Positions 2,504-61,165 are shown, counted from the stretch's first letter. The stretch is DNA of 64,000 nucleotides from a virus (IMGVR_UViG_3300031994_000053:1-64000); one strand, 5' to 3'. A program made the numbers and translations. The notes: a model not told the origin generated them from the letters alone.

Positions 2504-2731
2504 TCACTTCGTCGCGGCGGCTTCGTGCGCCACTTTCTCATGGTGGGCCCAGAGCCACCCGGCCTTGGCCGTGTCGAGGCGCTCGGCCTCCTGCCATGTC
2601 GTGCCGGGCTTCTTCTTGTGCCGCGCGATGACTTCCTCTATCTCGCGGATGTCATTCTTGCAGTCACACCCCGTTATCCACTTGATTGTGGCCAGGGACT
2701 CCCGCATCACGTCTTCCCAGTATTTCTCCAT
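2504..2731 (-). CDS. Hypothetical protein
   Basis: 75 aa starting MEKYWEDVMRES; AAAGGA SD upstream of ATG 2731 (track ORF 2504..3019 is over-extended). Confidence 0.65.
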   Translation of the reverse strand: MEKYWEDVMRESLATIKWITGCDCKNDIREIEEVIARHKKKPGTTWQEAERLDTAKAGWLWAHHEKVAHEAAATK

Positions 2732-2760
2732 GTTGCCTTGTCCTTTCGTTGCTGTTGCCC

Positions 2761-3252
2761 TTAGACGGCACACGCCGCCAAAATCTCCGCCATCTCCCCG
2801 TCGGCGAGGCCCATGAGCCTCTGGATTTGGGGAATCGCCGAGGCCATGAACGGGTCGTCGCTCTGGAGCGTCGTCGCGTACTCCCAGTCCTCCCAGACGC
2901 CCTGCACCTCCATCCACGCCTTCACCTGCGGCCAGACGCCGCGCCCCAGGAATACGCGGTAGAGCTTGCGCTTGCTGTAGTCCACGGGCGGTGGCGGCGG
3001 GTCCGCGACGAGCGCCCACGAACGCACGACGCGCGCAGGCGCCCCCGCGTCGTCGCAGGCGTAGCGTGGCTCGTAGTGGCGCCCGTCCGGCGCGTCCTGC
3101 GGCTTCGGCGCGCTCTCGTCAAGCGTGTAGAAGCCGAGCGTCGCAAGGTAGTCGGCGGGTAGGTTGCCCACGACTAGCGCACCGTTGATGGTGGCGCGGC
3201 GCGGCGGGTTTCGGTCGATTGCGGTTGTCGAGATAAGTTTGGCGCATGTCAT
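2761..3252 (-). CDS. Putative tail-fibre assembly/chaperone-like protein
   Basis: 163 aa immediately downstream of the fibre-tip-like gene; GFY...YEPRY...VRSWALV plus helical C-terminal domain. Confidence 0.55.
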   Translation of the reverse strand: MTCAKLISTTAIDRNPPRRATINGALVVGNLPADYLATLGFYTLDESAPKPQDAPDGRHYEPRYACDDAGAPARVVRSWALVADPPPPPVDYSKRKLYRVFLGRGVWPQVKAWMEVQGVWEDWEYATTLQSDDPFMASAIPQIQRLMGLADGEMAEILAACAV

Positions 3253-3263
3253 TGTCGGTTCTC

Positions 3264-3932
3264 CTAGATGTCGTTGCCGTAGAGGAACGCGCCGGTGCCG
3301 CGATTGCGGTAGATGCCGTCGTTCCTCGCGCTGCCGTCGGGGTCCATGCCGCCGACGCCTCGCCGGTCGTAGAGGCAGCCCTCGCTGCCGATGCGGACGG
3401 GGATGAAGTCGCGGACTAGGACGCCGTTTGTGTAGTGTTTAGACGACCATATCCGCATCGCGGCATAGGGAGCAATGCTGCCGGTATCGATCAACTTGCG
3501 GCCAAACAGCGCTAGGCCGCCGTAGGTCGTGGCCGGTAGCACAAACGCAGTCCAATCAATCGCGTAGACAAAAGCGCCGTCAACCTTGAAAACTTTGCCA
3601 GGTGCGTCTACTGTGAAGATGTGGCGGGAGGTATCGCCAGCCACAGACGGACTGGGGTTGTTTGTGTTGCCTATCCCGCAATACCATGTGCCTTTCGCGT
3701 TCAACCCAAACGCGAAACGCGGAGATAACCCGCCAGTATTGAAGGTCTGGCCCAGATATCTATTTACGTTCGACGTTTGGGTTATCGCTGCGTCGCACTC
3801 CCAGCGGAACGTTCCGTCGTGGACTAGTCCCGTATCTATCCACTGCGTCCCGGTGGACTCCAGATACTCCACCTCCGCGTCTGGGAGGCGCTTCCCGCCA
3901 CGCCCGAGCGGCATTAGCCTGGTCGGTATCAT
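3264..3932 (-). CDS. Tail-tip / receptor-binding-type beta-sandwich domain protein
   Basis: 222 aa from ATG 3932; [14 protein letters not shown] ... RDFIPV ... LYD ... NRGTGAF is a recurrent phage tail domain signature; central part has visibly lower GC. Confidence 0.7.
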
Positions 3933-4957
3933 TGCGCCGCCTCCACTCGCCAGACGTTCGCGAGAACCGCGCGCGTCGTGCAGTCCATGCGGCAGGCGAT
4001 GTAGAGCGTCGCGCCCGCGAAGCCGGATGTGGGGAGTTCTCCGCCGTCCAGCCACGTCCAGCCGGCAGGCCCCGCCAGGCTTGTCGCCGCGGCGTCGACG
4101 GCGACTTCCATTTCAAAGCAAAAATAGGCGTTCGCCGTCGGTATCGCCGTATCGTCTGGCGTCGGTATCGTCGCCGCCGTGCCGGAGAGGGCCGCGGAGG
4201 TGCGGTAGACTGCGGTGCCGGGCGAGAGGGTCGTGCCGGTCGCGTAGTCGAGGAGGTTGCCATTCACGCCTGCGGGGCCGGTCGCGCCTGCGGGGCCGGT
4301 CGCGCCTGCGGGGCCGGTCGCGCCTGCGGGGCCGGGCACGGTGCTCTGCGGGCCGGCAGGCCCCGTAGCGCCCTGCGGGCCGGTCGGGCCCGCAAGGCCG
4401 GGGTTTCCCCGGGGGCCGGTCGGGCCCGTGTCGCCCTTGACGCCCTGGGGGCCCTGGCCGCCCGTGTCGCCCCTGGGGCCCTGCTGGCCGCGGGGGCCCG
4501 TGTCGCCCCTGGGGCCTGCGGGGCCCTGCGGCCCGGTGTCCCCGCGGGCGCCCTGGGGGCCCTGCTGGCCGCGGGGGCCCGTGTCGCCCCTGGGGCCTGC
4601 GGGACCCTGGGGACCCTGGGGACCTTGCGGCCCGGAGTTGCCCGTGTCACCCCTGGGGCCCTGGGGACCCGTGTCGCCCCTGGGGCCCTGGGGACCCGTG
4701 TCGCCCCTGGGGCCCTGGGGGCCCTGCCGGCCGCGGGGGCCCGTGTCGCCCCTGGGGCCTGCGGGGCCCCGGGCGCCCCCGGGGCCTATGAGACCCCGGG
4801 GGCCTTGCGGACCTGGGGCGCCTTGGGGGCCGGTCGGGCCCATTGGACCGGTGGGGCCCCGGGGGTTGTCGGGAGGGGGGAACGAGGGGAAGATGGGACG
4901 GGGGGCCGGGCGCGTGCCCGGCAGCATGAATGGACTGGAAATCCCGTCTATTGGCAT
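3929..4957 (-). CDS. Collagen-like (G-X-Y) fibre protein with C-terminal globular domain
   Basis: 342 aa; 57 uninterrupted G-X-Y triplets, an STVP break, then 8 more; AGGAG SD; first gene after the sigma70 promoter. Confidence 0.9.
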
Positions 4958-5227: not shown

Positions 5228-5328
5228 TGGTAGCACCGTGTCGCCGCACAGGCGTGGCTGCCTGCGCGGACACGGGGCAATTGGTAGCACCGTGTCATCG
5301 CACAGGCAAAGCCTGGCGCCACCACGGT
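5228..5328. repeat. Tandem 26-bp direct repeat, each copy opening a hairpin
   Basis: TGGTAGCACCGTGTC(GC/AT)CGCACAGGC at 5228-5253 and 5282-5307, 24/26 identical, 54-bp period. Confidence 0.85.
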
Positions 5329-5399
5329 CGGATGACCAGGTCCCGCATTGGGATCGGTCCGCCCGCAGCGTCAGGCACCTGCACACGGAGGAAACTACA

Positions 5400-5729
5400 A
5401 TGACAACCCGTATCCCAACCACCGTCACGCTCTTCCAGGCGAAGGATGGACACCCCTACATTTCACTAGCAGACGCAACGACCAGCGATGGGCAAACCAT
5501 CAGCCGCGTGCTCGCCATCACAGGCAAGCCGGCGGCGGACAAGGTCGCGGTCGCGGCCAACGGCGCCAAATACGCGGTCCTCGGCCGCGTCGTGCTCGTC
5601 GGGCCGGCGTTCAACACCCGCGTCCGCGACGACGGCACGACCGTCAAGACGCTGATCGGCTGCGAAGGCATCGTGGCCGAGGAGCTGCCCGCTGACGTCG
5701 CAGAAGCGATGGCCGTGTTCGGCGCCTAG
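5400..5729 (+). CDS. First early gene, hypothetical (beta-rich, possibly OB-fold-like)
   Basis: 109 aa from ATG 5400; GGAGG SD; strong codon bias; followed by terminator. Confidence 0.8.
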   Translation: MTTRIPTTVTLFQAKDGHPYISLADATTSDGQTISRVLAITGKPAADKVAVAANGAKYAVLGRVVLVGPAFNTRVRDDGTTVKTLIGCEGIVAEELPADVAEAMAVFGA

Positions 5730-47300: not shown

Positions 47301-50300
47301 TCGCGGGCGCGCGCGGCCGCGGCCTCGGCGGCTTCGGTGCCCGCCGCGACGGCCGATGCGATGGCCTCCTCGTTCCGGGCCCGGCTTGTCTCCGCAATCC
47401 CGTGCACCACCATGTTGAATACGGTGTTGTCGGTGGCGAAGCCCTCGTCCCCGTAGTTGAAGCCATTCTTGAGGGAATCCCAAAAGCCCTTGAGGAAATC
47501 GAGGATGCGTTGGAACACCCCGCGGGTCTCCGCGCCGGCGACTCCGGCATCCCCCTCGACCCACTTGCGGAACGCCTCGGCCGCGGCTTCCTCGTTGAAG
47601 CCGTGGGCGCGGGACGGGTCCGTGCCGAACTGCTTGCGGAGCGCCTCGTAGTCAGCCTCCCCGAACAGCCCGATGGCCTCGAACATACGCATCATCGAGT
47701 GGAAGTACTCGTGGTACAGTTCGGTGCCCTTCGCCCCGGCAGGAAGCTGGATCGCGCCGACGAGCGTCTGCGCGCCCTTGCCGCTGAACGACCACTCGAC
47801 CTTGTGGGACGTGACACCGCCGATCGTCGCCTTGCGGGCGAGTTCCTTGCGGATCTCGAGCGGGAGGCGGGCGAAGTCGTCGGCCGTGAACGGCCGTTCC
47901 TTCGTGCCGAGGTTCACCGCCGCGCAGTACGAGGCCGCGAAGGCCCGCGAGTTTGCGAGGCGCTCCACGTCCTCCTCGGTCTCGGCGCGGAGGCCCTTGC
48001 CCGCGGTCTCGACCACGATGGAGACGCGGCGGCCGAGACCGGCGTTCCCGCGGAGCTTGCCGCGGATCGTGAACGCGGTGCCGCCGAGGTACTCCACGTT
48101 CGCCCAGGACGAGAGCAACCTGCCCATCGCCCTCGCGGCGTTGGCGGCTCGCTCGTCATATGCCCCCTTCGACAGGAGGGTCGGACGCGCCGGGGGTTCC
48201 GGCGCGGCGTTTGGCACATGTCCGACGTTGTACGCGTCGACGGCGTTCACCATGCGCTCGAACCGGTCGCCCGAGAACAGCTCGAGCGAATGGCGGAACG
48301 GGGCCTGGACCCTGCCACGGGGTTTTCCGGCGGGCGTCCGGGCCTCCGGCGCCATGTCGTTCGCGACGAGAATGGCGCGGGACTCCGGGCCCAGCGCGGC
48401 CTCGGACGCCGACAGCATCCGGTAGTACCGGTCCGGCAGGATGCCAAACAGGGACGGGGACGCGCCGGACGGCGTGCCGGTCACGCGGGACGTGACGAGC
48501 GAGTAGAACGGGAGGATCTGGCCGACCAGCATGGCCGGAGTCACCGCGTCTATGCCGTAGTTTTCCTTCAGCGCGCCGAGCGCCGCCTTGGCGTCTTCGG
48601 CCATTGCCTTCAGCTCTGCCGAGGCGTTGCCGGCTTCCTTGACGAGCGCGTCAACGTTATCCGCGGTAAGCGTGTAGCCTTTCGCCCGGGCGTATGACTT
48701 GGTGGTCGCGTTGGCCGCTTCCATGCCGTCGCCCTCGAATCCCACTGATACGCGACGTTCGCCCGCGTACGCCCGCCCCGCTATGACGTCGTCAAACATC
48801 GCGCGGACACGTTCGTTGGCCGCCGTGTCGTTCTCGCGGTACGTGGGGCCGATGCGAAGGAGCCCGTCGCCCATGCGGCCGTACGGGAAGTACTTGTGCG
48901 GCTTGCCGTCGGAGTCCTCGCCAAAGATGTAGTACGTCTGCTCGCCGTAGCCGGTGTCCCGGCGTGCGGAGATGTACGCGAACGCCTTGTTGCCGGCCGC
49001 GGAGTTGAATTCCTCCGAGGTCACGATGGACCGGTACATCATGCCGAACATGGCCTCGACGCCGCGGCGGAACGCCAGCACGGTGGGTGCAGGGGCCACG
49101 TCCTTGGTGGAGATTTTATCCGCGCGCTTTTCATATATGGCCGCCGATTGGAGATAAGCCTGTTTTTCTTCTCCTTGGGCCGATTCTGCGGATACGCGCT
49201 TATTAACCGCGGCCCTGCGGAGTTTCGCGGCTTCATCCGCCGCGACCGCGCGCCGGGAAACCTCGCCAGCCATCTCGCGCATCGCCGCGTACATTTGGCG
49301 ACCGTCCTTGAACACAGAGCCCGCCACGGGAAACGCGGCGAGGCTCGAGAGGAGTCCGTGCACGTACGGGAGCTGCTCCGCGTTGGACTCGATGTGCATC
49401 GCGTCCCAGGACTTGAGCCGGTCGGACTCGGAGACCAGAGGCTCCTTGGGGTCGGTTCCGTCGCGGTACGCGGTCATCGCGCCTGCCATGACGGTCTGGA
49501 GGCCTTCGCCCAGGGAGTATGCCATCCGCGTCGCCGCGTGCATTCTGCTCAAGGTCCCGGCCAGAGGTCCGAGTCCCGGGATTTCAACAGCCTTGGCGAC
49601 GTCAAAGGTCGCCTTACCATCTTCCGACGTAAACGCCTCGCGGACCGAATCGCCAAGCGCCGTGGCGTTGGGCGAGCCCGGGTCGGCCGTCAGGTAGTTG
49701 ATCGCCTGGCCGAACGACCGTGCGTCGTCAAGTTCGCACTTCATGCCGAACCACCGGGCGAACGCGGGGGCGGACGATTCGTGACCCGATGCCAGCCATG
49801 CGACATACCCGAACACGGGGTTGTGCCCGCCATCCTTTGCGAGCTCCGTTATCAGCTTCCGCCGTTCGGCCCGTTTAAGCCCGCTGTTCATGACAGTGCG
49901 GAACCACGCGGGGGTCGCGCTCCCGAGTTGCAAAGACCCCGACTCCCATGTAAGGTCCAGGGCCTTCTCCAGCCAAGCCTTTGTAATGTTGTTCGGATCC
50001 GCAGAGTCGCCGGCCACGGCCTTCGCCATGTCTGCGAATTTCGGTCCATTGGCGGCGCCACGGCGTGTGGCGGCCAACGCCCAGAGGAACCGGCCGCCAT
50101 TCTTGATGTCCTTGATGTACGCGCCGAGCACGTCGGCAAACGCCTGGTCCGTCACGGGCAGCCCGGAGTCCCCGGCCGCCACATAATTGAGGAGGTTCGC
50201 GTAGACACTTTCAAGCATCTCCCGCGTCCAGCCCAGACGGCCGCACAGCTGTTCCTTCACGTCGTCGAACGTCGCATTGGATATGCCGTCGAGATGGTAG

Positions 50301-53300
50301 GCGAACTTCCACCAGTTTTCGGACAGGCCCGCGTTGTTCCGGAACATCCGGGGGAATGCGTCGCTCGCCAGCCAGGCGAGATGGAGGTTACGGGCCAGCG
50401 CCACGGCGATGCCACGCGCGTCGCCGGCGTCCTTTGCGGAAGTCGACACTTCGGCGGCGACCTTCGGGTCCCCGAGGTCCCGTTTATCTTCATTGCTTAG
50501 CGTGGGCGGCAGCATATCGTGGCGCAGTTCCTCCGCGGCCGCTCCACTGACCGGGAACGCCTTGGTCGGTGCCGACACGAGCCCGTCAGGCGCCAGGAAC
50601 GTCTCGCGAGGCACTCCGGAATTTTCGGAACTGAACCGGTCGACCAGCTGGAGCTTGTTCCCCTCCTGGTCCACGGCCGCGTGCACCGGCATGTGGCGCG
50701 CCATCTCGAACAGCGCCTTGACGAACGTATTGGAAACCCGGCGCCTCGCGTCCTCGGAAATTTTGTAATAAACGTCCTCTCCGGCCTCTGTCGCCTCGTC
50801 GACCGGCTTCTCCGTGTCGGACTCGGGGTCGTACCGCCAGGCTTCCAGGAACTTGCGCGTCTTCTTGTCCGCCCGGAACGTCGCGGCTTCTGTCAGAAGC
50901 GCCCGGACGCCGTCGGGGTTGTTTTCAATTTTGTCGGGGTCCCCTTGATACTGCGGTATCTCAGCCTCCGGCAGCTGGCCGGTCCAACTTTGGTAAAGCA
51001 AGTATGCCTTGGTCTTGTCACCGTCGTGGTCGCAGCCGAGAAGCTGGTTGGTGAACGGGTCGGGCTGGACCATCGCGTCGGCGCCGACGCGCCAGCCCAG
51101 GGTCTTCCCCTTCGTGTCCTTCTCCTCAATCTCCGTGGCGGGAAGCCCGGCGCGGACCACCTGGAGCCACATGGACCCGTTGTAGGACGGGGTGCGCGGC
51201 AAGCCGAACATGGTGCCACCGAGCACGATGTGCTTCTGCCCGGTCGCGTCGTTGAAGATCTGGTCCCGCGACTCGCACATGACGGCCGTGAGGTCGAACA
51301 CCTGTGCACCGGTACCCTTCGGGTCGTCACGGAACAGGTCGTCGAAACCGAAGTTGTCCGCCGCGCCCGGTATGTCGGATATGTACCGGCCGTGGTGGTC
51401 CTTGAAGCACTCCGCGATCCGCCGCCGGAGGGCCGACCTTTCACCCCTGTCCTTGGTCCCGCGCAGGTTCTCGAACACCCGGGCGATGCCGAGCGCGACC
51501 AGCTGGCCGGAGGTGAGCACGCCTTCGTGGTCTTTCGTGTAGTCTAGCAACGCACCCGAAATCTCGCTGTCGAAAGCCGTCCTGAACTTACCCTCGTCGA
51601 GGAACCAGGCGTACCGGAAGTTGCGCTGCGAGTAGTTGACGTTGCAGAGCGCGAAGTTGCGGTCCGCGCCGTAGAACCCCCGTTCCGACTTGCTGTACAG
51701 GCAGGAGCCGCGCATCACGTCGCGCTGCATCTGGCTGGCCGACATCGTGAACAGCTTCCCGTTGTCGTCCAGCGCCGCGCCGGACGACACGAGAGCCATG
51801 TCCACGCCGCCGAGCGGGAGGTTGGACGCCTGCCGTATCTCAGCCCACACCTGGCGGGCGAGCTCCTCGCGGGCAAACTGCCCGCCGGCCGACTCGCCAG
51901 CCTCGCGGAGCTCGTTGAAGTGGCGGGCGCGCCGGGTCACGGAGCGCACGTACTCCGGGTTGGAGTAGACCGCGTTGGCGAACACGCCCCAGTCGGCGAT
52001 GAGACCGAGGGCTTTCTGCGCAAGGCCCGGCGCGTTGTCGAGCGCGCCAAAGCGGGCGAGCGCCGTGGCCATCGTGGCCATGTCGACCTCGTAGTTGCGC
52101 GGGGACCGGCCCGGGACGTTCGGAAGCCTGGAGTTGTGGGACACGTTGGCCACGGGATACGCCATCGCGCCGTCCTCGCGGTACGAGAAGTCGAGCGCGG
52201 GGCCGGACAGGCCCGGAAGGTAGCGCAGTTCCGCGCCCGGCAGCAGCTCGGACAGCTTCATCGTCGATTCGCCGCGGACGTCGTCCTTCACGGCGATGTC
52301 GCCGAACATCGCATCCAGCTGGTCGCCGGACACGCCACCCCCGAACGCGGTCCGCAGGGCCTTGTCGAGCTCGTCGAACAGCACCTGCTTCCGCTCCCCG
52401 TCCTTGAGGTCGCCTTTACTGAACTTGCCGTCAACCGCCTTGTCGAACGCGAGGTCGTAGATGACCTTCATTAGGGTCCCGCCGTATTTGCGCTCCTGCC
52501 CGCCGACGATCGCCTTGACAGTGACCGTGATGGACTTGGACGACAGCGGGCCTATCTTGTAGGAATCCCTGTCGGTGAAGACGTCGGTGGACAGGTCGTC
52601 CGCGCCGCGGTACTTCGCGAGGTAGTCGTCGATGGCGCGGTCGGCGGAACCGGGCGCGAACTCGCCCGACCCGGAGGACGTGGCGACGGACAGGGATTTG
52701 CCGAAGAACAGGTCGCGGCCCTGCGTGGAGATGAGGTGGACCTTGAGCAGGGACGAGGATGGGTCCTGCGCGGTCTCCTTCAGGGCGCGCGCCGCATAGC
52801 CGCGCATGAACGTGGAGCCGAGGAGCGCCTCGTTGGGCTTCTTGGCGTAGCCGTTCTCGCCGCCGAAGCTGAAGTCCCCGTCGTAGAACCGGAAATTCTC
52901 GCCGACGTGGATGCGGTTCTCGCCCCATGTGCGGTTGCCATCCTGGCCCACGCGAGTGCCAACCATGCCGACGCCCGTGGCCTCAAGGGATGAGATCGCG
53001 GAGCGCTTGGCGTCCACGCCCATGAGGGCCATGCCGATCGCACGGTAGACGGCCTTTGACGCCTCTTCGTAGGAAGGTACGTGTTTTTTATCAGACGGTT
53101 GAGTCGCCGCCGGCGTTTCCTGGCGTAGCCGCTGGCGTGCCTCAGAAAGCGCTTTTGGGAACTCCGTGGCCCAAATGCCACGATCTTGCGTGTGGGTAAA
53201 TGTCGCAGACCCCGTGTCAAGCAAAGCTCGCTTCGCCTCCGGGTTCTGCCGGAACGACTCGAAAACCAAGTCGCGCATCAACTGCACATTGGTCCTGGTA

Positions 53301-56300
53301 TCTGCCTGTCGGAAGCTGCGAATCTTCTTGCCCGCCGCCCACCTCTGTCGGTAGGTTGTTTCATCGAACGACCCGCTTTTCAGTGTTTGATACGCGTGCT
53401 CGACGGAAACGTAATCATGCCCCTGGAAAGAGAATGGCCGACTCGCCAAATTGCTGAACTCGGCGTTTTCGCCCGTCCCATGCCAAACGTTTATCGGGCC
53501 CTTAGGCTGACTAACAGTTTGGGTCGGTTGCTGCGCAACTTGCTGTAGGGCCTCCACCGTCAAATCAACCTCGCGCGGTATCTGGAGCAGCGTGTTGGAC
53601 GAGTGGTCGCCAGAGAACAGCGGGACATAGTACGTCGTGCGCTTCTGATCACCGGCCATCGCCTCGTAGGAACGGCGGCAAGCCTCATACACTTCGTTCG
53701 GGCTGAAGCTGGCCGACAGGCACTTCGCGCAGATCGGGGTCCGCGCGGCATCCGGCCACGTGGCGTCCTGGCGGCACTCGGCTATGACCTCGTCAGTCAC
53801 GCCGGGGAAGAACCGGCGGCACGTCTCGGCGAACGTCGGGAGCGTGGTCCCGTCCGCGAGCTTCAGCGCGGTGGACTCGTCGGCGTAGAGCCAGCGCGAC
53901 ACGAGGGGCACGAGGTCCCGGGGCGCCACGGCTATCGAGGACGCCTTGGTCCCGCGCCGCTGGTCGATCTCGGCCGCCATGATGGTCGTGGGGAGGCTGT
54001 TCTGGAAAATGTCGAGGACGGAGAACACGGGGCTCTCCATCGCCACGCTGGACGACGCGCCGGCGACGCCCGCGGCCTGCGGGTTGCCGGTCGCGATGGC
54101 GGCCGTCATCACGGCGGATATGTCGGAACGCGACAAGTTCCCGGACATCCGGGACAGCGAGTCGAGCGCATAGGCTATCGTGTCGATGAACTCGACCGTC
54201 TGGGCCTTTGGCTGGTACTTTGTCTTGTCGGGGCGCTCGATTTCCGCCGGCACGGGCATTCCGTCCCGTATGCGCAACGCGGTCACGCCATTTGAATACC
54301 CGTGCGGGCGTAACGTAAGCGCCAAATTCTGCAACACCTCGGTCCGTACGCGGGCAAGCTGTGCGAACGCCATGTCGGAAGACAGCGCCGTGCAGAGCGG
54401 GGACTCGCGCCCGAACGCCTGCCCGATGATGCCGGACAGGACCCGCATGTTCTGCTTCACGGCGGCTATGAGCTGCGCGCGCGTCGCGTTGGCCGGTTGC
54501 TTGGGTGCCCAGCCGGCCGCGTCGTCGGCAGCCTTGAGCAACTGGTCCTTCAGTTCCCTTGCCTTGGCTGCGGGCCGCCCGTCGAGCTCGGCGAAGCTGT
54601 CGGCCACAAGGGACTCGGCGATGCGGCCGCCCCCGCGGGACTGTGCCTCGCGGATCACCATGCCGCCGCCCTCGTTCTCCTTGAGGGCTATCGGGGTCGC
54701 CGCGACGGAGTACGCCATGAGGCGGGCCAGGCGGAAACGCCCGTTCGGGCGCATCGAGGTCAGATAGGAAAGGAGGAACGCGCCCTTGCGGGACACGGGC
54801 CTGCCGTCCGTACCGTTCCCGAGGAGCGACCGGATGTACCCGTTGGCCTCCTCGCCGCCGAGCTTCAGGAGGTCCTCGCGGAGCAGGGCGTCGTGCTGCG
54901 GGAGCGACGCCCCCTCACGGTTGGCCCTCGGGTTGAGGATGCGGTACAGGAACTTCCCGGCGTCGCTGGGCGCCGCGTCGGCGCGCACCGACCCGCGGGC
55001 GAGGCGGACGAACCCTTGGAGGTTCGCGCCGGTTTCCGGGGACGCCTTCGCGGCGAGCGCGAGAAACGTGCGCATGGCGTCGGACGTGTACTCGTCGACC
55101 GCGACACGGTTGTAGTCGTCGGACGAAAGGCTCTCGTCGTCCTTCACGTCCTCGGCGAAGAACCACACGCCGGACGACGCGGCGTCGGACCAGTCCCCCC
55201 GGTTCCTCACGCGGTCGTCGTCCATGCGGGTGTACGCCGCCAGGACCTCGGCGCGGTCCGCGGCGTCCATGCCGGGGAACATCTTTCGGAGGACGCCGGC
55301 CACGCCGGCGCGATTCACGGGTTCGCCGCTCGCCAGAAGGGCGCGGACGGCGACCGCCGCGGCCGTGTCGGCCTCGCGGGGCTCGAGGTGTCGGCCGGCG
55401 GGGCCGACCTCCAGCCCGTGCATCACGGTGAAGCCGTCGAGGTTCGCCGCGTCGGGCGCCATCGCCGGGAGCTCGCGAGTCCCGCCGAACACCACGGTGG
55501 GGTCGTCTTCGAGCACGATGTCGTCGTTCGTCGTGTCGTCGTTCGAGTCGATGGCCGTCACGCTGCGCGGACTCCAGGTGGCTCCGGCGCGGCCGCCGAG
55601 GTCACTTGCGCGGACGACCCGCGCTCCCGTCTCGGCCTGGACCTTATCAAGATTTGTCGCAGCGTCCTTCGCGGCGTCATCGGCTGCCTGGTACTCGGCG
55701 CGTGCCCGGTTCACTTCTGCATTGAGGTCTTCAACAGATGCGCCGGACTCCGCGGCGGCTTCGGCCACGGCCTCCGTCCCCTCGACCCGTGCGGCGGCCG
55801 CGTCAAGTTTGGCCATCGCGTCAATCACATTCCTGCGGGCTTCGTTCCGTCTCTCCTCCGCGTCGACTTTTGCGTTTGCCGCCTCGGCCACGCGTTCCGC
55901 CGGTGTCTGGTCCACATTGTACAGCGCGCGCTTGATCTCGCCGAGCATCCCGCGGGCCGCCGTCTTCTGGGCCTCGGTGACGGTCGGGTCGGTCACCGCG
56001 TCCTCCATCAGCTTGGCCATGACCTTGGTGAACGCGCGCGGGACACTGCCCTCGCGGGTCATTTCGGCAGTCCTCTTGAGCACGCCGACGAGCCTGGACA
56101 TGAAGTTGAGGTGGGCTTCCGCGGCCTCCGCGGCCGTGGCCTTCGGGGTCTCGGCCTCCTTCGCCGCCTCCTTCAGCTCCTCGGTCTCCTTCGGGGACGC
56201 GGCCTCCCGCGACGCACCCTCGGACTTCAGCATCGATGTCATGCCCTGGAGCATCCGGTCGAGGAACTGGGAGTACGTCATCCCGGCGGGGAGCGACGCC

Positions 56301-59300: not shown

Positions 59301-61165
59301 CCCAGCACGTACCGCATGTACGCGCGGTTCAGCTTGCCCTGGAACTGGCGGTCGTACATCTCGTCCAGGGCCTTGGCCGCGAACTTGCGGAAGTCATTGC
59401 CGATCGCGGCCTTCATCGCGTCGGGAAGCGAGGCGGCCGAGCCGCTCTCCACGGCGTTCCGTATAAGCGCCTTTCCGGCCACGTCCGTGACGCCAAGCTT
59501 CGCCGCGACGGCCTCGGCCTGCCTGCCGGCGGCCGCCCGCATGAACTCCTGGCGCGTGCCACCGGAGGACAGGATCATCTCGCGGAGACGCGCGCCGATG
59601 GCGTAGCCCTTCCCGTCGTCCGCGAGGCCCGCGGCCACGTCGACGAGACGGGACGGGGTGACAAGACCCTTCACGCCGGCGCGCTCGAGACCCAGGCCGG
59701 CCGCGTGGAAAACGGAATTCAGGCCGCGGCCGGTGTTCTCGGAAATGTACTCCATGAGGCCGAGGCCCATCGACATCGATTCGGCGCAGTCCATCAGACC
59801 CCAGTTCCCGGTGCGAAGGGCCGCGGCCTCGAAGGAAAGCCGGTTCTCGGTGACGACCCTGCCGTCCGCGCCCCAGAGCGCGCCGACGGCCGGGCGGGCG
59901 ACGAACTGGTTAGGCGCCCACATCATCGCGCCGCGGACCGGGGCCTCGACGAACCAGGCCCCCGCGGCGTCCGCGAGGGACTTGCCGATGGAATCGCGAG
60001 ACGTGTAGAGAATCGTGCTCTCCTCGGTGCCGTACGTGCCAAAGTCGAGGAGCCCGCGGGAAAGGTTGTGCGTGGCCCACTGCCCGAAGGACTTCAGGCC
60101 GCGGGCGACGGCGCCGCCGGACGTGCGCGACGCATACCGTGCCAACTCGATGCCGGCTCGCTTTTTCGCGAGCTCGCGGATGGCCTCGGAGGACAACCCC
60201 TTGTATGCGGTCTTCTCCATCTGGGCCTTGAGCATGAAGTTCGCGATGTCGTCCGCGACGCCGCTCTCGATGGCGGCCTTCGCGGCGTCGTCCGAAAGGT
60301 TGGCCAGCGTGCGGGCACCGGCTTTCGCCAGGGCCTCGCCAGCGGCCTTCTCCGTGAACTCGCGGGCGAGGATTTTCGTGGCGCGGTTCATCGCGAGGGC
60401 CGTGCTCTCGGGGAGCGCGCGGGACGCGGCGCCGCGGACGGCGCCGCCAATGAAGCTCGTAGCGGCGAACTCGGCCATGAAGCCCGGCGCGTGACGGGCG
60501 ATGTCGCCCACCGTGCCCATGAGCGTCGTGTTGTTGGAACGGTAGTCCTGCTCCGCCATGTAGAGGCGGGCGCGGATCAGCTCCTCGTCGGAGACATCCT
60601 CCTTGTTCCGCAGCTTACGGAATGTGTCGGAGACCATCTGCGCGTCGCGGAAGGAGTTGCGGACGCTGGCGATCATGCCGACGAACGGAAGGTCGGAAAC
60701 GGAGACTTCGGAAAGAGCCGTGAGAAAGCCACGCTTCACGCCGTCACGGGTCTTGCCCGCTATTTCGAGAAGCCTACGACCGTCTTCCGATCTCATCAGT
60801 TTGTCTCGGGAGACCGCACGGCCAAACACGTTGAGCGATACAATATCGTTAGATGTGAGGGGCAGACCGGCACGCTCGCCATAGGCGACGGTTCGGCTTC
60901 CGTCAAAATCCGGGTCAAGCGTATACCAATCGCCAGCCATCCCGTCGAACGGTACCGCATTCGGGTCAGGCGGGTCAGCATAGCTGATGCTCAAAGGAGC
61001 CACACGGGCGGCCTGCTGCGTGGCCAGCGTCTGCTCAAGAAGCGATTCCCGCCGGGCCGAAAGATATTCTGCGAGGGAACCGGGCTCGGCCCCGGAGCCA
61101 AACAACGGCTCGCGGGCCACGGCAAAGTCAGACTGCGATAAATCGGAAAAGGAAAAAAGGGCCAT
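41318..61165 (-). CDS. Giant (6615 aa) polyvalent ejection protein with putative two-barrel RNA polymerase, NADAR and zincin metallopeptidase domains
   Basis: Single uninterrupted ORF with GGAGG SD; RTP (R3324) and GCDHDGD (D3379-D3383); SVEHAYQTLK NADAR (about aa 2555-2680); HEYFH (H4485-H4489) followed by EEAAAEAF. Confidence 0.85.
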   Translation of the reverse strand: MALFSFSDLSQSDFAVAREPLFGSGAEPGSLAEYLSARRESLLEQTLATQQAARVAPLSISYADPPDPNAVPFDGMAGDWYTLDPDFDGSRTVAYGERAGLPLTSNDIVSLNVFGRAVSRDKLMRSEDGRRLLEIAGKTRDGVKRGFLTALSEVSVSDLPFVGMIASVRNSFRDAQMVSDTFRKLRNKEDVSDEELIRARLYMAEQDYRSNNTTLMGTVGDIARHAPGFMAEFAATSFIGGAVRGAASRALPESTALAMNRATKILAREFTEKAAGEALAKAGARTLANLSDDAAKAAIESGVADDIANFMLKAQMEKTAYKGLSSEAIRELAKKRAGIELARYASRTSGGAVARGLKSFGQWATHNLSRGLLDFGTYGTEESTILYTSRDSIGKSLADAAGAWFVEAPVRGAMMWAPNQFVARPAVGALWGADGRVVTENRLSFEAAALRTGNWGLMDCAESMSMGLGLMEYISENTGRGLNSVFHAAGLGLERAGVKGLVTPSRLVDVAAGLADDGKGYAIGARLREMILSSGGTRQEFMRAAAGRQAEAVAAKLGVTDVAGKALIRNAVESGSAASLPDAMKAAIGNDFRKFAAKALDEMYDRQFQGKLNRAYMRYVLGDFMARHNLGAESVLNLWRTGGYDGVLGEMFEERYADVVNGLLGLDANPDGPKWRSEPEKFWRNLKAGLASAKAGALPGWDQLVAEAVGFAIPGVTRTLALRAQSAIGGEGKLTKMRARLDAIAEVNRVTNPAQMTWSDYVGVHEMLQEKDRAEIERLGTLRDAARAAGDESKAKDLEEQIAETTKVVERREARHNSFSATVDEVAKANGELLAVPLIPSRFLADDLMNKLTPTYSARDAEAGLSARDNLADYAPELARDLYTSEMHLEGEEPAWYRRAAHKIVGFAAALATGDFGMAAVNPSQWTARDMGLEENTVKALKSGFREEYLRTRREMAVKAEGGKPTQAQVLDEAQRRFAQRARDIMRADTTVSQLRSFSQGLFRSQALEYAAAHHEDPADPRPYLSAIRDGKPVLYRLTEDKTAVDETSVIPAEEFAEAHRDEVEAAYRDILRATTDLVVRGLSYSANVDGKVVQAVDNAVNSRSDLAAIAVYDAAARIVGEDGLLHRIRTDEGDVPLAEILRGGAVSTATADAIEYIGGKANVSDVDGIVFESVAQSMRRGFDGTEKGLAARNDEIFRMAKLLTADRDRGTEYYSKPVEDLRGMAARLSPNGTERARLRETGGKWVVGIDGQASETFGTRDEAVASLVEHGWARERGRYVITQAKVIEFGDMFHALRELGYSGEYYRALGGVSAQNDSLHPMLRQKESGELLEEDAARDVLARELAAAARGETADAGTDERKAWERVWGETGYMTVGERILTRHGVEKDGSSAVTGEAAAYTHPRYTFKMSAGRVANVSSDVFIQVDPTVNADMMDAVLNGVMLRAFLNRGHLLSTGATGENTADYIRQLSAVADQAIEDAYKAKDVPLAEQIRNFRDSYLRGSDVVVETEDGRYEARHTAGLTGEGFARIVSAFVLNRAEKYKENPFLRAAAVLAERARRLPSYAFFMNTADLVLGGDGFLSEAVRAANRDKSAPAEPRGVAALMAWADGDAEAMRKSLEASLPAGMTYSQFLDRMLQGMTSMLKSEGASREAASPKETEELKEAAKEAETPKATAAEAAEAHLNFMSRLVGVLKRTAEMTREGSVPRAFTKVMAKLMEDAVTDPTVTEAQKTAARGMLGEIKRALYNVDQTPAERVAEAANAKVDAEERRNEARRNVIDAMAKLDAAAARVEGTEAVAEAAAESGASVEDLNAEVNRARAEYQAADDAAKDAATNLDKVQAETGARVVRASDLGGRAGATWSPRSVTAIDSNDDTTNDDIVLEDDPTVVFGGTRELPAMAPDAANLDGFTVMHGLEVGPAGRHLEPREADTAAAVAVRALLASGEPVNRAGVAGVLRKMFPGMDAADRAEVLAAYTRMDDDRVRNRGDWSDAASSGVWFFAEDVKDDESLSSDDYNRVAVDEYTSDAMRTFLALAAKASPETGANLQGFVRLARGSVRADAAPSDAGKFLYRILNPRANREGASLPQHDALLREDLLKLGGEEANGYIRSLLGNGTDGRPVSRKGAFLLSYLTSMRPNGRFRLARLMAYSVAATPIALKENEGGGMVIREAQSRGGGRIAESLVADSFAELDGRPAAKARELKDQLLKAADDAAGWAPKQPANATRAQLIAAVKQNMRVLSGIIGQAFGRESPLCTALSSDMAFAQLARVRTEVLQNLALTLRPHGYSNGVTALRIRDGMPVPAEIERPDKTKYQPKAQTVEFIDTIAYALDSLSRMSGNLSRSDISAVMTAAIATGNPQAAGVAGASSSVAMESPVFSVLDIFQNSLPTTIMAAEIDQRRGTKASSIAVAPRDLVPLVSRWLYADESTALKLADGTTLPTFAETCRRFFPGVTDEVIAECRQDATWPDAARTPICAKCLSASFSPNEVYEACRRSYEAMAGDQKRTTYYVPLFSGDHSSNTLLQIPREVDLTVEALQQVAQQPTQTVSQPKGPINVWHGTGENAEFSNLASRPFSFQGHDYVSVEHAYQTLKSGSFDETTYRQRWAAGKKIRSFRQADTRTNVQLMRDLVFESFRQNPEAKRALLDTGSATFTHTQDRGIWATEFPKALSEARQRLRQETPAATQPSDKKHVPSYEEASKAVYRAIGMALMGVDAKRSAISSLEATGVGMVGTRVGQDGNRTWGENRIHVGENFRFYDGDFSFGGENGYAKKPNEALLGSTFMRGYAARALKETAQDPSSSLLKVHLISTQGRDLFFGKSLSVATSSGSGEFAPGSADRAIDDYLAKYRGADDLSTDVFTDRDSYKIGPLSSKSITVTVKAIVGGQERKYGGTLMKVIYDLAFDKAVDGKFSKGDLKDGERKQVLFDELDKALRTAFGGGVSGDQLDAMFGDIAVKDDVRGESTMKLSELLPGAELRYLPGLSGPALDFSYREDGAMAYPVANVSHNSRLPNVPGRSPRNYEVDMATMATALARFGALDNAPGLAQKALGLIADWGVFANAVYSNPEYVRSVTRRARHFNELREAGESAGGQFAREELARQVWAEIRQASNLPLGGVDMALVSSGAALDDNGKLFTMSASQMQRDVMRGSCLYSKSERGFYGADRNFALCNVNYSQRNFRYAWFLDEGKFRTAFDSEISGALLDYTKDHEGVLTSGQLVALGIARVFENLRGTKDRGERSALRRRIAECFKDHHGRYISDIPGAADNFGFDDLFRDDPKGTGAQVFDLTAVMCESRDQIFNDATGQKHIVLGGTMFGLPRTPSYNGSMWLQVVRAGLPATEIEEKDTKGKTLGWRVGADAMVQPDPFTNQLLGCDHDGDKTKAYLLYQSWTGQLPEAEIPQYQGDPDKIENNPDGVRALLTEAATFRADKKTRKFLEAWRYDPESDTEKPVDEATEAGEDVYYKISEDARRRVSNTFVKALFEMARHMPVHAAVDQEGNKLQLVDRFSSENSGVPRETFLAPDGLVSAPTKAFPVSGAAAEELRHDMLPPTLSNEDKRDLGDPKVAAEVSTSAKDAGDARGIAVALARNLHLAWLASDAFPRMFRNNAGLSENWWKFAYHLDGISNATFDDVKEQLCGRLGWTREMLESVYANLLNYVAAGDSGLPVTDQAFADVLGAYIKDIKNGGRFLWALAATRRGAANGPKFADMAKAVAGDSADPNNITKAWLEKALDLTWESGSLQLGSATPAWFRTVMNSGLKRAERRKLITELAKDGGHNPVFGYVAWLASGHESSAPAFARWFGMKCELDDARSFGQAINYLTADPGSPNATALGDSVREAFTSEDGKATFDVAKAVEIPGLGPLAGTLSRMHAATRMAYSLGEGLQTVMAGAMTAYRDGTDPKEPLVSESDRLKSWDAMHIESNAEQLPYVHGLLSSLAAFPVAGSVFKDGRQMYAAMREMAGEVSRRAVAADEAAKLRRAAVNKRVSAESAQGEEKQAYLQSAAIYEKRADKISTKDVAPAPTVLAFRRGVEAMFGMMYRSIVTSEEFNSAAGNKAFAYISARRDTGYGEQTYYIFGEDSDGKPHKYFPYGRMGDGLLRIGPTYRENDTAANERVRAMFDDVIAGRAYAGERRVSVGFEGDGMEAANATTKSYARAKGYTLTADNVDALVKEAGNASAELKAMAEDAKAALGALKENYGIDAVTPAMLVGQILPFYSLVTSRVTGTPSGASPSLFGILPDRYYRMLSASEAALGPESRAILVANDMAPEARTPAGKPRGRVQAPFRHSLELFSGDRFERMVNAVDAYNVGHVPNAAPEPPARPTLLSKGAYDERAANAARAMGRLLSSWANVEYLGGTAFTIRGKLRGNAGLGRRVSIVVETAGKGLRAETEEDVERLANSRAFAASYCAAVNLGTKERPFTADDFARLPLEIRKELARKATIGGVTSHKVEWSFSGKGAQTLVGAIQLPAGAKGTELYHEYFHSMMRMFEAIGLFGEADYEALRKQFGTDPSRAHGFNEEAAAEAFRKWVEGDAGVAGAETRGVFQRILDFLKGFWDSLKNGFNYGDEGFATDNTVFNMVVHGIAETSRARNEEAIASAVAAGTEAAEAAAARARENPDDEAAIAEAAGMYDSVARLEEGDETAIASVLSNAFAPAVSETVRTPEELEAAAAANVEAPVLGNTIADFGRSKRWHKFALANPEAAEKVRAADLRVMRRLTGEERVPDAEFRRLLAESAETRRSVADDRNAAPVSDTEDFFEATPADPAGTPSANASAAAGNVRRGTLPLSVSNDFYATARWIRESMEHGLKTDGSWSRGLEYVTRKYALPDPREVARDRVIVMNGLRRALATVNPEALGKLNDKDIRDSIAFQAALRMYHSLEASFITRTNVDAATGEAKPANSRHDKITGDFRRDPKARHASMYQVSAWVTSSDPVAPSKVAARAAASAGTRLKRAMENGAGGELAAELLFQKQQMDALAAMVKDPGSLARYVETDGAETIDRVMHALWTGVRAGKPDARGRMPDFVPVNEVDERGDVSTARLLDDDDAPVIARRRALVSDPEFQRGLKACVSAAYQVAAMAKFYRETGTEPATPEDLEFQKAARERHGVPAGLTAAEWLAAQAAGDSNLAGDAGLVDYSDQSSFIAENVSAWSRSLIRKSFGAKGNIGEMLSAEMHEYDAIKGEIARLENFHAFLFGDNVEAGGRILKLLEHDATHALEDGQVVWAAGGKYLKFDNYRRQLADIVLTESDLRIIDIFKKMCAARASRQDRVVTGVADIRFHGGMNRDPAFYSREAIARRLANSEQLDALSFALRRMDDQIPPEILEPYRRRFVASAIAAMAEADGDKLVRASGPTSARYNALVISALRERGLVEGMCRDNYRYDVDGLPRFTSAAATIPCDEINDAFLGSEAYRKLTSDKGGRKPEMLDRDAIIKDMMAVYSKAVRFAKAHPWLTHGDGAYFSNFGTALPFWRGSGVFMYNAQRALRDRAADRQGAASRDYERMKAVVDSEFADVPVRDLQADKVINGLDMLSNLYGIGVSGQPLIDLIAAGGFEPGSARSRRTGLELPADATYAGLAEAIYSKSLQNAWAAKFGTKEEAGIDYRAAMDVVDAYRDAALTRGELFGGAVGLNDLDMFRRTGTLPANYQIGHKVHVAIDGLANAMMSRATLANMLMTPAYDGAPVYYADPSDIAADVSGLPDAFWQNVARWWCEYNGDAYDEKLSGVQNAKREFAALRAKMTANKGVLGTNPETACRYREHKDANASIASVERWLVREAEEAAPHGRIADFAIDKLGLGEALGYLQQFLGASRAMGTGGPAARSLLHRALGWSKAMSVSFSFFFPLATRFESPTAAVGALATLGGNYKPIADYMREHPKAFDFLRKLPGGPAWITKNFLGFSDIVDMMDSNDPFLAELYAWANALGVRTSTSLVSPLEDAQAMTQGDLDHLKRIIRDTYGAEIAAKFGRMARDVALRQSDKAFNYALNATKLAVTAQLATKLRYLAERQGKAFDPIRDLKKYADYINAEVGGLDPLKYSWAHPANRRLLNVLMFSWQWTRGAWEAGGGKVLEDLAFGTNTASRQERAHYIGRWARMLGLVMLGFPQVLQILSTALAKVLDAAAGGMDGDDDDRLSDEEFYAAFHRERTAAEKVRFARATAGMGGPEFLAKYGRGRDRFEMAAYADRHSWHNRDVWFTWQNEDRARWKSADITPLLRAIARFDDTRLGGALRSFKRGGRFGAGVAGAAAGAVAGYAGGGNWLTGLVGAGLGATAGRVSPDFIPLYMGDDPANGSYNRRVYVHAGKQGWEEVRWFEDPIGQFLSKLSMPAQRVTEGILGFNPGYMAQALPWSEMGWAERWLSPTVDGATWNLMQAWMPFSFSGMTRNRDAGFVSMALPVQRGASKTALGKELTKQLDLWARNDRRGYATGDGRGRYAKVNDVLLEARRNGYDPAALMKSTSQELLAKYYGELFRALMKYDPSAPFDSASLNRPARAALRLGGAFDRAVASMRSRVKSSGARVGDAEGRAMYLMLGQAYANPNMAIEYGPEVREAANGGAALGNFLATDKIPDTIFGIKVVQTPEEYTEADLEFFREHPRAAGFYELEGEGR

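Follow-up and report, generated by a model that had tools for sequence, protein, structure and literature searches.

The window analysed here is a stretch of 64,000 nucleotides of viral DNA (IMGVR_UViG_3300031994_000053:1-64000), part of a virus contig in IMG/VR that measures 89,878 bp, is estimated to be 94% complete and has a GC content of 66%. Its minus strand carries an open reading frame (ORF) for a giant protein of 6,615 amino acids (P0001). Within this protein, a compact NADAR domain occupies a sharply bounded variable slot, immediately before a core that is predicted to fold like a two-barrel RNA polymerase (RNAP). The domain is very probably a recently acquired cassette, and might serve to remove ADP-ribose from nucleic acid as infection begins.

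Among sequencing runs, only those from sheep-gut metagenomes hold the sequence in full, and no RNA runs are among the listed holders. The comparisons below rest on 52 collinear homologues of 5,290-7,508 amino acids, all metagenomic, collected by a word-indexed search with residues 2200-3500. A scan of IMG/VR with the single protein as query gave no match, and an alignment-based scan of the same database gave four relatives with GC contents of 66-72%, whose slots are all empty or small.

Identity of the NADAR domain

The domain has the NADAR alpha + beta fold, and this assignment is as good as certain because searches by sequence, profile and structure converge on it. Taken alone, the domain matches Pfam family PF08719 at E = 4.8e-8 with 33.9 bits (31.6 bits in a context of 300 amino acids; gathering score 35.1). 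It also matches phrog_1017 at E = 9e-11 and, by phmmer, Escherichia coli YbiA (2B3W) at E = 0.012. An exhaustive HMMER search returned 847 related clusters at 50% identity, 523 of them at E <= 1e-10. The clade alignment (A1) combines the domain, as a query of 145 amino acids, with 26 small stand-alone members, 27 in total. PF08719 matches 19 of the 27 clade members at E <= 0.01, and the A1 profile matches YbiA (2B3W) over its full length at E = 1e-8. A1 has 18 invariant columns, among them E44, K51, H113 and W120 of the query. An AlphaFold2 model built from A1 reached a mean predicted local distance difference test (pLDDT) score of 93 and a predicted template-modelling score (pTM) of 0.86. With this model as query, Foldseek matched NADAR structures only, and the three best matches are all the NADAR structures that the PDB contains.

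The A1 profile also gave a weak match to T4 RNase H (E = 0.004), which was judged to be due to chance because the domain model matches NADAR folds only.

The clade to which the domain belongs represents a compact form of NADAR, about 125 amino acids long, from which the Gly-rich loop after the conserved Trp has been deleted. In the giant protein the domain is flanked by Gln/Pro/Thr-rich linkers, QQVAQQPTQTVSQP upstream and QETPAATQPSD downstream. An earlier note on this DNA had quoted a peptide that corresponds to residues 2567-2665 on the minus strand, with DRGIW ending at residue 2665, and its span (53125-53501) lies within the domain as defined by hidden Markov model (HMM) search (Table 1).

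Among cultured phages, the nearest NADAR (46% identity) is that of Bacillus phage AgentSmith (L003, 5698-6411). There it forms the C-terminal part of a protein of 237 amino acids, annotated as 'toprim domain-containing', that lies beside tRNA genes.

A bounded slot for exchangeable cassettes

The NADAR domain and its linkers fill a slot whose limits are set by the homologues themselves. When the two flanks were used as separate queries, both anchors were recovered in 52/52 homologues, with edges exact to the last and first residue. BLAST collinearity is lost at about residue 2530 and regained at about residue 2698 in almost all homologues, and an alignment of 10 proteins has zero invariant columns from P2530 to Y2699. 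The slot is 'empty' (7-43 amino acids) in 35 homologues and measures 78-1,044 amino acids in the other 17. Four recurrent module types, single or serial, account for 15 of the filled slots, and the remaining two (P0016 and P0031) contain unclassified sequence.

Module A is the NADAR domain, which is missing at the slot in 50/52 homologues and is present there only in P0001 and P0004, in copies that are 62% identical to each other. Module B comprises about 120 amino acids with the motif FIGFGxGSTGxYA...GVSVNG...AGAxIIAD. No Pfam family corresponds to it, and only four relatives were found, one of them in a fragment of an N4-type virion RNA polymerase (vRNAP; P0211). An HExxH-like motif (AHEAAH or YHELAH) marks module C, and module D is SLOG/YpsA-like, with the motif SGAAEGSD...GGTGYA. 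Modules B, C and D, carried by homologues P0002-P0020, are candidate counter-defence cassettes. NADAR also occurs at another site, at about residues 4744-5436, in P0032, P0033 and P0035, and the other modules are likewise found elsewhere in some members.

Slot content changes much faster than the scaffold around it, as shown by proteins with near-identical backbones and different cassettes. A tree of the backbones without the slot shows hardly any difference between P0004 (A+B) and P0018 (B+B), whose branch lengths are 0.017 and 0.039, and the same holds for P0008 (B) and P0010 (C+C). The two proteins with NADAR in the slot, P0001 and P0004, fall in different clades of this tree. A search for repeats flanking the slot gave only short, chance-like matches; neither a target-site duplication nor a recombination signal was found.

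Codon composition points to the same limits. Third codon positions have a GC content (GC3) of 0.635 in the slot, compared with 0.907 and 0.908 for the 150 codons to its two sides and 0.883 for the ORF as a whole. Of all windows of 167 codons in the ORF, the one with the lowest GC3 begins exactly at residue 2531, the boundary that the homologues give independently. GC at codon positions 1 and 2 is the same in the slot as outside, and other segments specific to P0001 have normal GC3 (0.82-0.95). The trough indicates that the cassette is compositionally foreign and has not yet been ameliorated, and its recent arrival can be accepted with considerable confidence.

The description given in the earlier note, of a NADAR domain with an EHxYQxxK motif between Gln/Pro/Thr linkers, encoded by DNA with more A/T-ending codons than its flanks and recently inserted into the giant protein, is thus borne out on each of these points. 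The domain is supported by the Pfam and phrog_1017 matches, the YbiA profile match and the AlphaFold2 model, the linkers are present on both sides, and the recent insertion, which is in frame, is supported by the coincidence of the GC3 trough with the slot and the lack of NADAR there in nearly all homologues.

Other parts of the giant ORF also depart from its usual composition. The first 167 residues (window 60665-61165) have a GC3 of 0.647, the only other stretch as low as the slot, and in most homologues BLAST leaves about the first 58 residues unaligned; another exchanged segment may lie here, or the start of translation may shape the composition. GC3 is lowered to 0.71-0.77, and conservation is low (15-20% identity to homologues), at residues 1751-1850, 3701-3800 and 3951-4050 (window positions of about 55615-55915, 49765-50065 and 49015-49315, respectively), which may mark further places where the scaffold varies.

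Table 1. The giant ORF and its features around the NADAR cassette, in window coordinates
Feature	Residues	Window positions	Strand	Basis
Giant ORF (P0001), scaffold carrying the cassette	6,615 aa	41318-61165	-	ORF list and translation
Upstream conserved anchor	2380-2530	53576-54028	-	Aligned to the last residue in 52/52 homologues; GC3 0.907
Variable cassette slot, filled linker-NADAR-linker	2531-2697 (167 aa)	53075-53575	-	Anchors in 52 homologues; GC3 minimum
NADAR-fold domain	2553-2686	53108-53509	-	HMM-defined
EHAYQTLK motif with Glu2589 and Lys2596	2589-2596	53378-53401	-	Both invariant in A1 (E44, K51); aligned with the E/K of YbiA and PnNADAR
THTQDRGIW segment	Thr2657, His2658, Trp2665	53171-53197	-	Profile alignments to 2b3w and 8bau; H113 and W120 invariant, T112 at least 90% conserved in A1
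Two-barrel RNAP-like core, beginning 12 residues past NADAR	2698-3395	50981-53074	-	Predicted model
DHDGD metal-binding motif	3379-3383	51017-51031	-	Invariant in aligned homologues; in the second barrel of the model (model residues 421-697)

The adjoining polymerase-like core

The sequence directly C-terminal to the slot was modelled by folding residues 2698-3480 together with 11 homologues, which gave a pLDDT of 66.7, good for model residues 30-690. According to this model, the core folds like the single-chain two-barrel RNA polymerases of the crAss gp66, P23-45 gp96 and QDE-1 type, with two double-psi beta-barrels (DPBBs) and a metal-binding motif of the DxDGD type. An exhaustive structural aligner matched the predicted second barrel to dozens of DPBB domains from the large subunits of cellular RNAPs; Foldseek returned no match for the core model, and the link from the core to crAss gp66 came from the exhaustive aligner only. 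Sequence homology to crAss gp66 was detected neither by phmmer against the PDB nor by hhalign against an alignment of DFDID cores (probability 0.2%).

The earlier note had placed the NADAR domain next to or inside the polymerase region. The cassette does adjoin the core, on its N-terminal side. A position inside the polymerase was rejected, because the whole cassette precedes the modelled core.

The same NADAR clade on other giant proteins

NADAR domains of this clade are carried by proteins of very different sizes. Among the 147 best clusters with this clade, 29 have proteins of at most 250 amino acids and 90 have proteins of more than 1,000. An N4-type vRNAP domain is present in 19 of the 102 NADAR-clade proteins longer than 1,000 amino acids (Pfam vRNAP_dom families were confirmed in P0064), and in these carriers the NADAR usually lies 300-500 amino acids upstream of the polymerase. 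Seven further large carriers have crAss-type cores, which were recognised by a family HMM in P0054 and P0062 and by the DFDID motif in five metagenomic giants.

The clade is also present in GenBank on the virion RNAPs of crAss phages. In cr126_1 (Kolpuevirus hominis), protein QOR59539.1 (2,402 amino acids) is labelled only as a 'DUF1768 domain-containing protein'. Its NADAR spans residues 62-189 (51.6 bits with Pfam), DFDID is at position 1509, and phmmer matches the protein to 6VR4 at E = 9e-15. In cr130_1 (Suoliviridae), gp79 has 5,801 amino acids, with DFDID at 4229 and NADAR at 5257-5417. The statement in the earlier note that a counter-defence domain delivered on the polymerase itself would be a new configuration therefore went too far, given these two crAss genomes and the metagenomic N4-type vRNAPs. 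A literature search found no description of NADAR, YbiA or DUF1768 fused with a crAss or virion RNA polymerase, and the fusion is recurrent in databases and apparently undescribed in papers.

The NADAR of P0001 is 61-62% identical to those of N4-type polymerases and 62% identical to that of P0004. This equal similarity across scaffolds indicates that the cassette moves between unrelated scaffolds.

P0054 (7,925 amino acids) and P0062 (7,428 amino acids) belong to a distant giant-protein clade, with 23-37% identity outside NADAR. They carry the NADAR (57-66% identical) in a comparable place, about 130-140 amino acids upstream of their RNAP-like core, which points either to a socket of long standing or to more than one capture at one site. 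The gp79 protein of cr130_1 (L005, NC_055901.1, 6225-23630) has an annotation of the DprA/SLOG type and, besides its DFDID polymerase core, NADAR in its C-terminal part. Its gene has 75 in-frame stops under table 11, which indicates that the cr130_1 genome uses a reassigned stop codon.

Catalytic residues

Three residues of the E. coli C7 NADAR matter for the removal of ADP-ribose from guanine: E88 and K95, which are catalytic, and D171, whose substitution abolishes efficient guanine de-ADP-ribosylation (PMC11543638). The domain has the equivalents of the first pair, E2589 and K2596, and thus two of the three. In sequence-profile alignments, the third position (E125 in PnNADAR, D171 in E. coli C7 NADAR) aligns with Thr2657, which is followed by the invariant His2658. 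This position varies between types of NADAR, being E125 in PnNADAR/YbiA, Asp in BC4488 and DarG1, and His in T4-like phage NADARs (PMC11543638).

With the third acid replaced and the Gly-rich loop deleted, chemistry or specificity may differ from that of characterised NADARs. Judged from the residues, activity is plausible. By analogy with its relatives the domain is probably an active hydrolase, and ADP-ribose on nucleic acid is a credible substrate for it, at just under an even chance.

A possible role at phage entry

Stand-alone NADARs of phages (AdfN of T4, Bas32 and Bas60) strip ADP-ribose from DNA and defeat DarTG1 (PMC11825919; PMC11125620). DarT enzymes modify single-stranded DNA, and the resulting adducts block replication and sometimes transcription (PMC11825919). 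On this analogy, the cassette could be a NADAR delivered with the virion that removes ADP-ribose from nucleic acid at phage entry, a reading which falls a little short of being probable.

A compact, self-contained NADAR cassette with flexible linkers has recently entered a hypervariable slot directly N-terminal to the two-barrel RNAP core. The giant protein would travel in the virion and enter the host together with the DNA, in the manner of crAss gp66 and the polymerases of N4 and P23-45 (gp96). Because gp66, the N4 vRNAP and the tape-measure-fused RNAP of P23-45 are virion proteins that are ejected into the host, the giant protein is probably delivered too. The NADAR domain would then be in the cell before the expression of any phage gene. 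Here, Glu2589 and Lys2596 would cleave the N-glycosidic bond between ADP-ribose and the nucleic-acid base, the likeliest target being guanine modified by a DarT1-type toxin on transiently single-stranded phage DNA, so that the early template would be kept transcribable and replicable. Since DarT acts on single-stranded DNA, and gp66 transcribes single-stranded or denatured DNA, a tethered eraser would act where and when lesions matter. The slot itself would be a socket where related phages swap small modules for counter-defence or host takeover.

A more far-reaching proposal is that the compact clade is a dedicated 'template-cleaning' accessory of virion RNAPs, fused convergently to N4-type single-subunit and crAss-type two-barrel folds for the reason that ejected polymerases work on transiently single-stranded DNA, the substrate of DarT-type enzymes. 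The hot-swappable socket would then allow cassettes (NADAR, SLOG-like, HExxH-type and module B) to be exchanged between otherwise unrelated scaffolds within ecological time. In this full form the proposal is speculative, and we regard it as rather unlikely.

Several observations weigh against virion delivery of an ADP-ribose eraser. The Pfam score of the domain is slightly under the gathering score, its third catalytic acid is replaced by Thr2657, and the Gly-rich loop is deleted. Hydrolase activity, substrate and virion packaging rest on analogy, both for this protein and for the whole compact clade. About three quarters of the large clade carriers have no recognisable RNAP, and the link may therefore be to ejected giant proteins generally, not to transcription. 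Only a lysozyme and an exonuclease were recognised among the genes adjoining the giant ORF, and apart from the lysozyme these neighbours carry no structural-module annotation.

Other functions for the cassette have to be considered against this background. It is unlikely that the domain acts on small ADP-ribose-derived molecules, such as Thoeris-type cyclic ADP-ribose isomers, other ADP-ribose signals or toxic by-products, and so quenches immune signalling at entry. Such a function would fit the presence of the SLOG/YpsA-like module D in the slot pool, as SLOG domains are predicted sensors or processors of ADP-ribose and nucleotides, and a different substrate could account for the change at the third catalytic position and the loss of the loop. 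However, all assayed NADARs outside the YbiA group act on ADP-ribosylated nucleic-acid bases (PMC11125620, PMC11543638, PMC11825919), and degradation of signals of the cyclic ADP-ribose type has been shown for no NADAR. The few enzyme copies that a virion can deliver would also suit a few genome lesions better than a diffusible pool of signal. Protection of transcripts or of the polymerase, through erasure of ADP-ribose on nascent RNA, of other base adducts (ADP-ribosyl-cytidine) or of marks left on the polymerase by host ADP-ribosyltransferases (ARTs), appears less likely again. It would explain why the clade is tethered to RNAPs of two unrelated folds, with a fusion that recurs on N4-type and crAss-type vRNAPs. 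An RNA-ADP-ribosylating defence system is mentioned in PMC11825919, and NADARs also reverse the ADP-ribosylation of cytidine (PMC12945103). On the other hand, no NADAR is known to act on proteins, and most carriers in the clade lack an RNAP.

It is improbable that the domain is a self-immunity or regulatory partner of a phage-encoded ART, or else an inactive structural spacer for the slot. A partnership has precedents in P0061, which has an ART at 189-390 and NADAR at 1472-1621, and in P0060, with precomputed PF18760 and PF08719 domains, but Pfam detects no ART domain anywhere in the 6,615 residues of P0001. The missing third acid also speaks for these readings. Against a spacer stand the 18 residues (Glu and Lys among them) that do not vary among the 27 diverse members, as well as the size of the clade (847 clusters at 50% identity), which argue for a selected enzymatic function. 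A housekeeping role of the YbiA type, in the handling of riboflavin intermediates, was judged implausible, given that the domain is a cassette within a giant phage protein. Removal of ADP-ribose from nucleic acid at entry stays the reading adopted here, at the strength given above.

Further domains of the giant proteins

The scaffold and its homologues carry other potentially enzymatic elements. An HEYFH (HExxH) motif at residues 4485-4489 (window 47699-47713), inside YHEYFHSMMRMFEA, is invariant in all aligned homologues and may mark a zincin-type metallopeptidase that processes the giant protein. Precomputed ART-PolyVal, helicase, nuclease and DUF1848 domains are found in some homologues. 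Giant proteins repeatedly carry DUF1848 (PF08902), which accompanies ART-PolyVal and NADAR in P0061, is a precomputed domain in P0003, P0013 and P0049, and may be another type of cassette.

Implications

Phage NADARs are known only as small proteins of the AdfN kind, made after infection. A pre-made copy carried by the first enzyme that meets the entering genome, if this is indeed what the cassette provides, would close the window of time open to DarT-type toxins, and virion polymerases would double as delivery vehicles for counter-defence enzymes. The exactly bounded slot, with different cassettes on near-identical backbones, offers a natural system for studying how counter-defence modules are swapped, and modules B and C form a short list of likely counter-defence candidates. 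The compact clade of about 125 amino acids, without the canonical third catalytic residue, is also a good target in the search for new ADP-ribose chemistry.

Comparison with known systems

The locus is a variant of two known themes, namely counter-defence by phage NADARs and polyvalent proteins that are ejected into the host. Viral NADARs outside the polyproteins of RNA viruses are typically stand-alone, and some are probably packaged in the head (Iyer et al. 2022, PMC9503650). The nearest functional parallels are the AdfN proteins (T4 gp30.3, AdfN-Bas32 and AdfN-Bas60; Johannesman et al. 2025, PMC11825919; Cihlova et al. 2024, PMC11125620). These share with the cassette a phage NADAR fold without a partner toxin, the catalytic Glu and Lys, and the presumed role of removing ADP-ribose from phage DNA against DarTG1-type defence. 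However, AdfN proteins are small, stand-alone and made post-infection, whereas the cassette is internal to a protein of 6,615 amino acids and is probably pre-packaged. Kinship in sequence is remote (Pfam Phage_30_3, E = 0.006), and the E125 position is His in T4-like AdfN but Thr, with an invariant His after it, in the present clade.

The cassette also differs from the DarG1/DarT1-associated NADARs, PnNADAR and YbiA (Schuller et al. 2023, PMC11543638; 8BAT, 8BAU, 2B3W). The domain is part of a much larger ORF rather than a stand-alone gene or a member of an operon with DarT, and no DarT is adjacent. It lacks the N-terminal extension typical of DarG1, and also the third acid and the Gly-rich loop, and has about 125 amino acids instead of 160-220.

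As in polyvalent proteins (Iyer et al. 2017, PMC5512222), the effectors of this giant multidomain phage protein are variable and predicted to be delivered with the DNA. Several unrelated effector domains, modules A-D, are variably present in the slot and elsewhere across the 52 homologues. In contrast to the polyvalent proteins, however, variability is concentrated in one exactly bounded slot beside a two-barrel RNAP core. The 2017 survey reported ART fusions to N4-like RNAPs and had 0 occurrences of NADAR/YbiA (PMC5512222).

Finally, crAss gp66 of phi14:2 (6VR4) is, as predicted here, a single-chain two-barrel RNAP in a giant protein, and its orthologues QOR59539.1 of cr126_1 and gp79 of cr130_1 are polymerase proteins with a NADAR of this very clade. 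They differ from the present protein in having DFDID instead of DHDGD, in a GC content of about 29-35% (two crAss records) versus 66%, and in the position of NADAR. The particular value of this locus lies in how exactly its slot can be defined, in the evidence that cassettes are exchanged rapidly within a family that is GC-rich and not crAss, and in its connection to N4-type polymerases.

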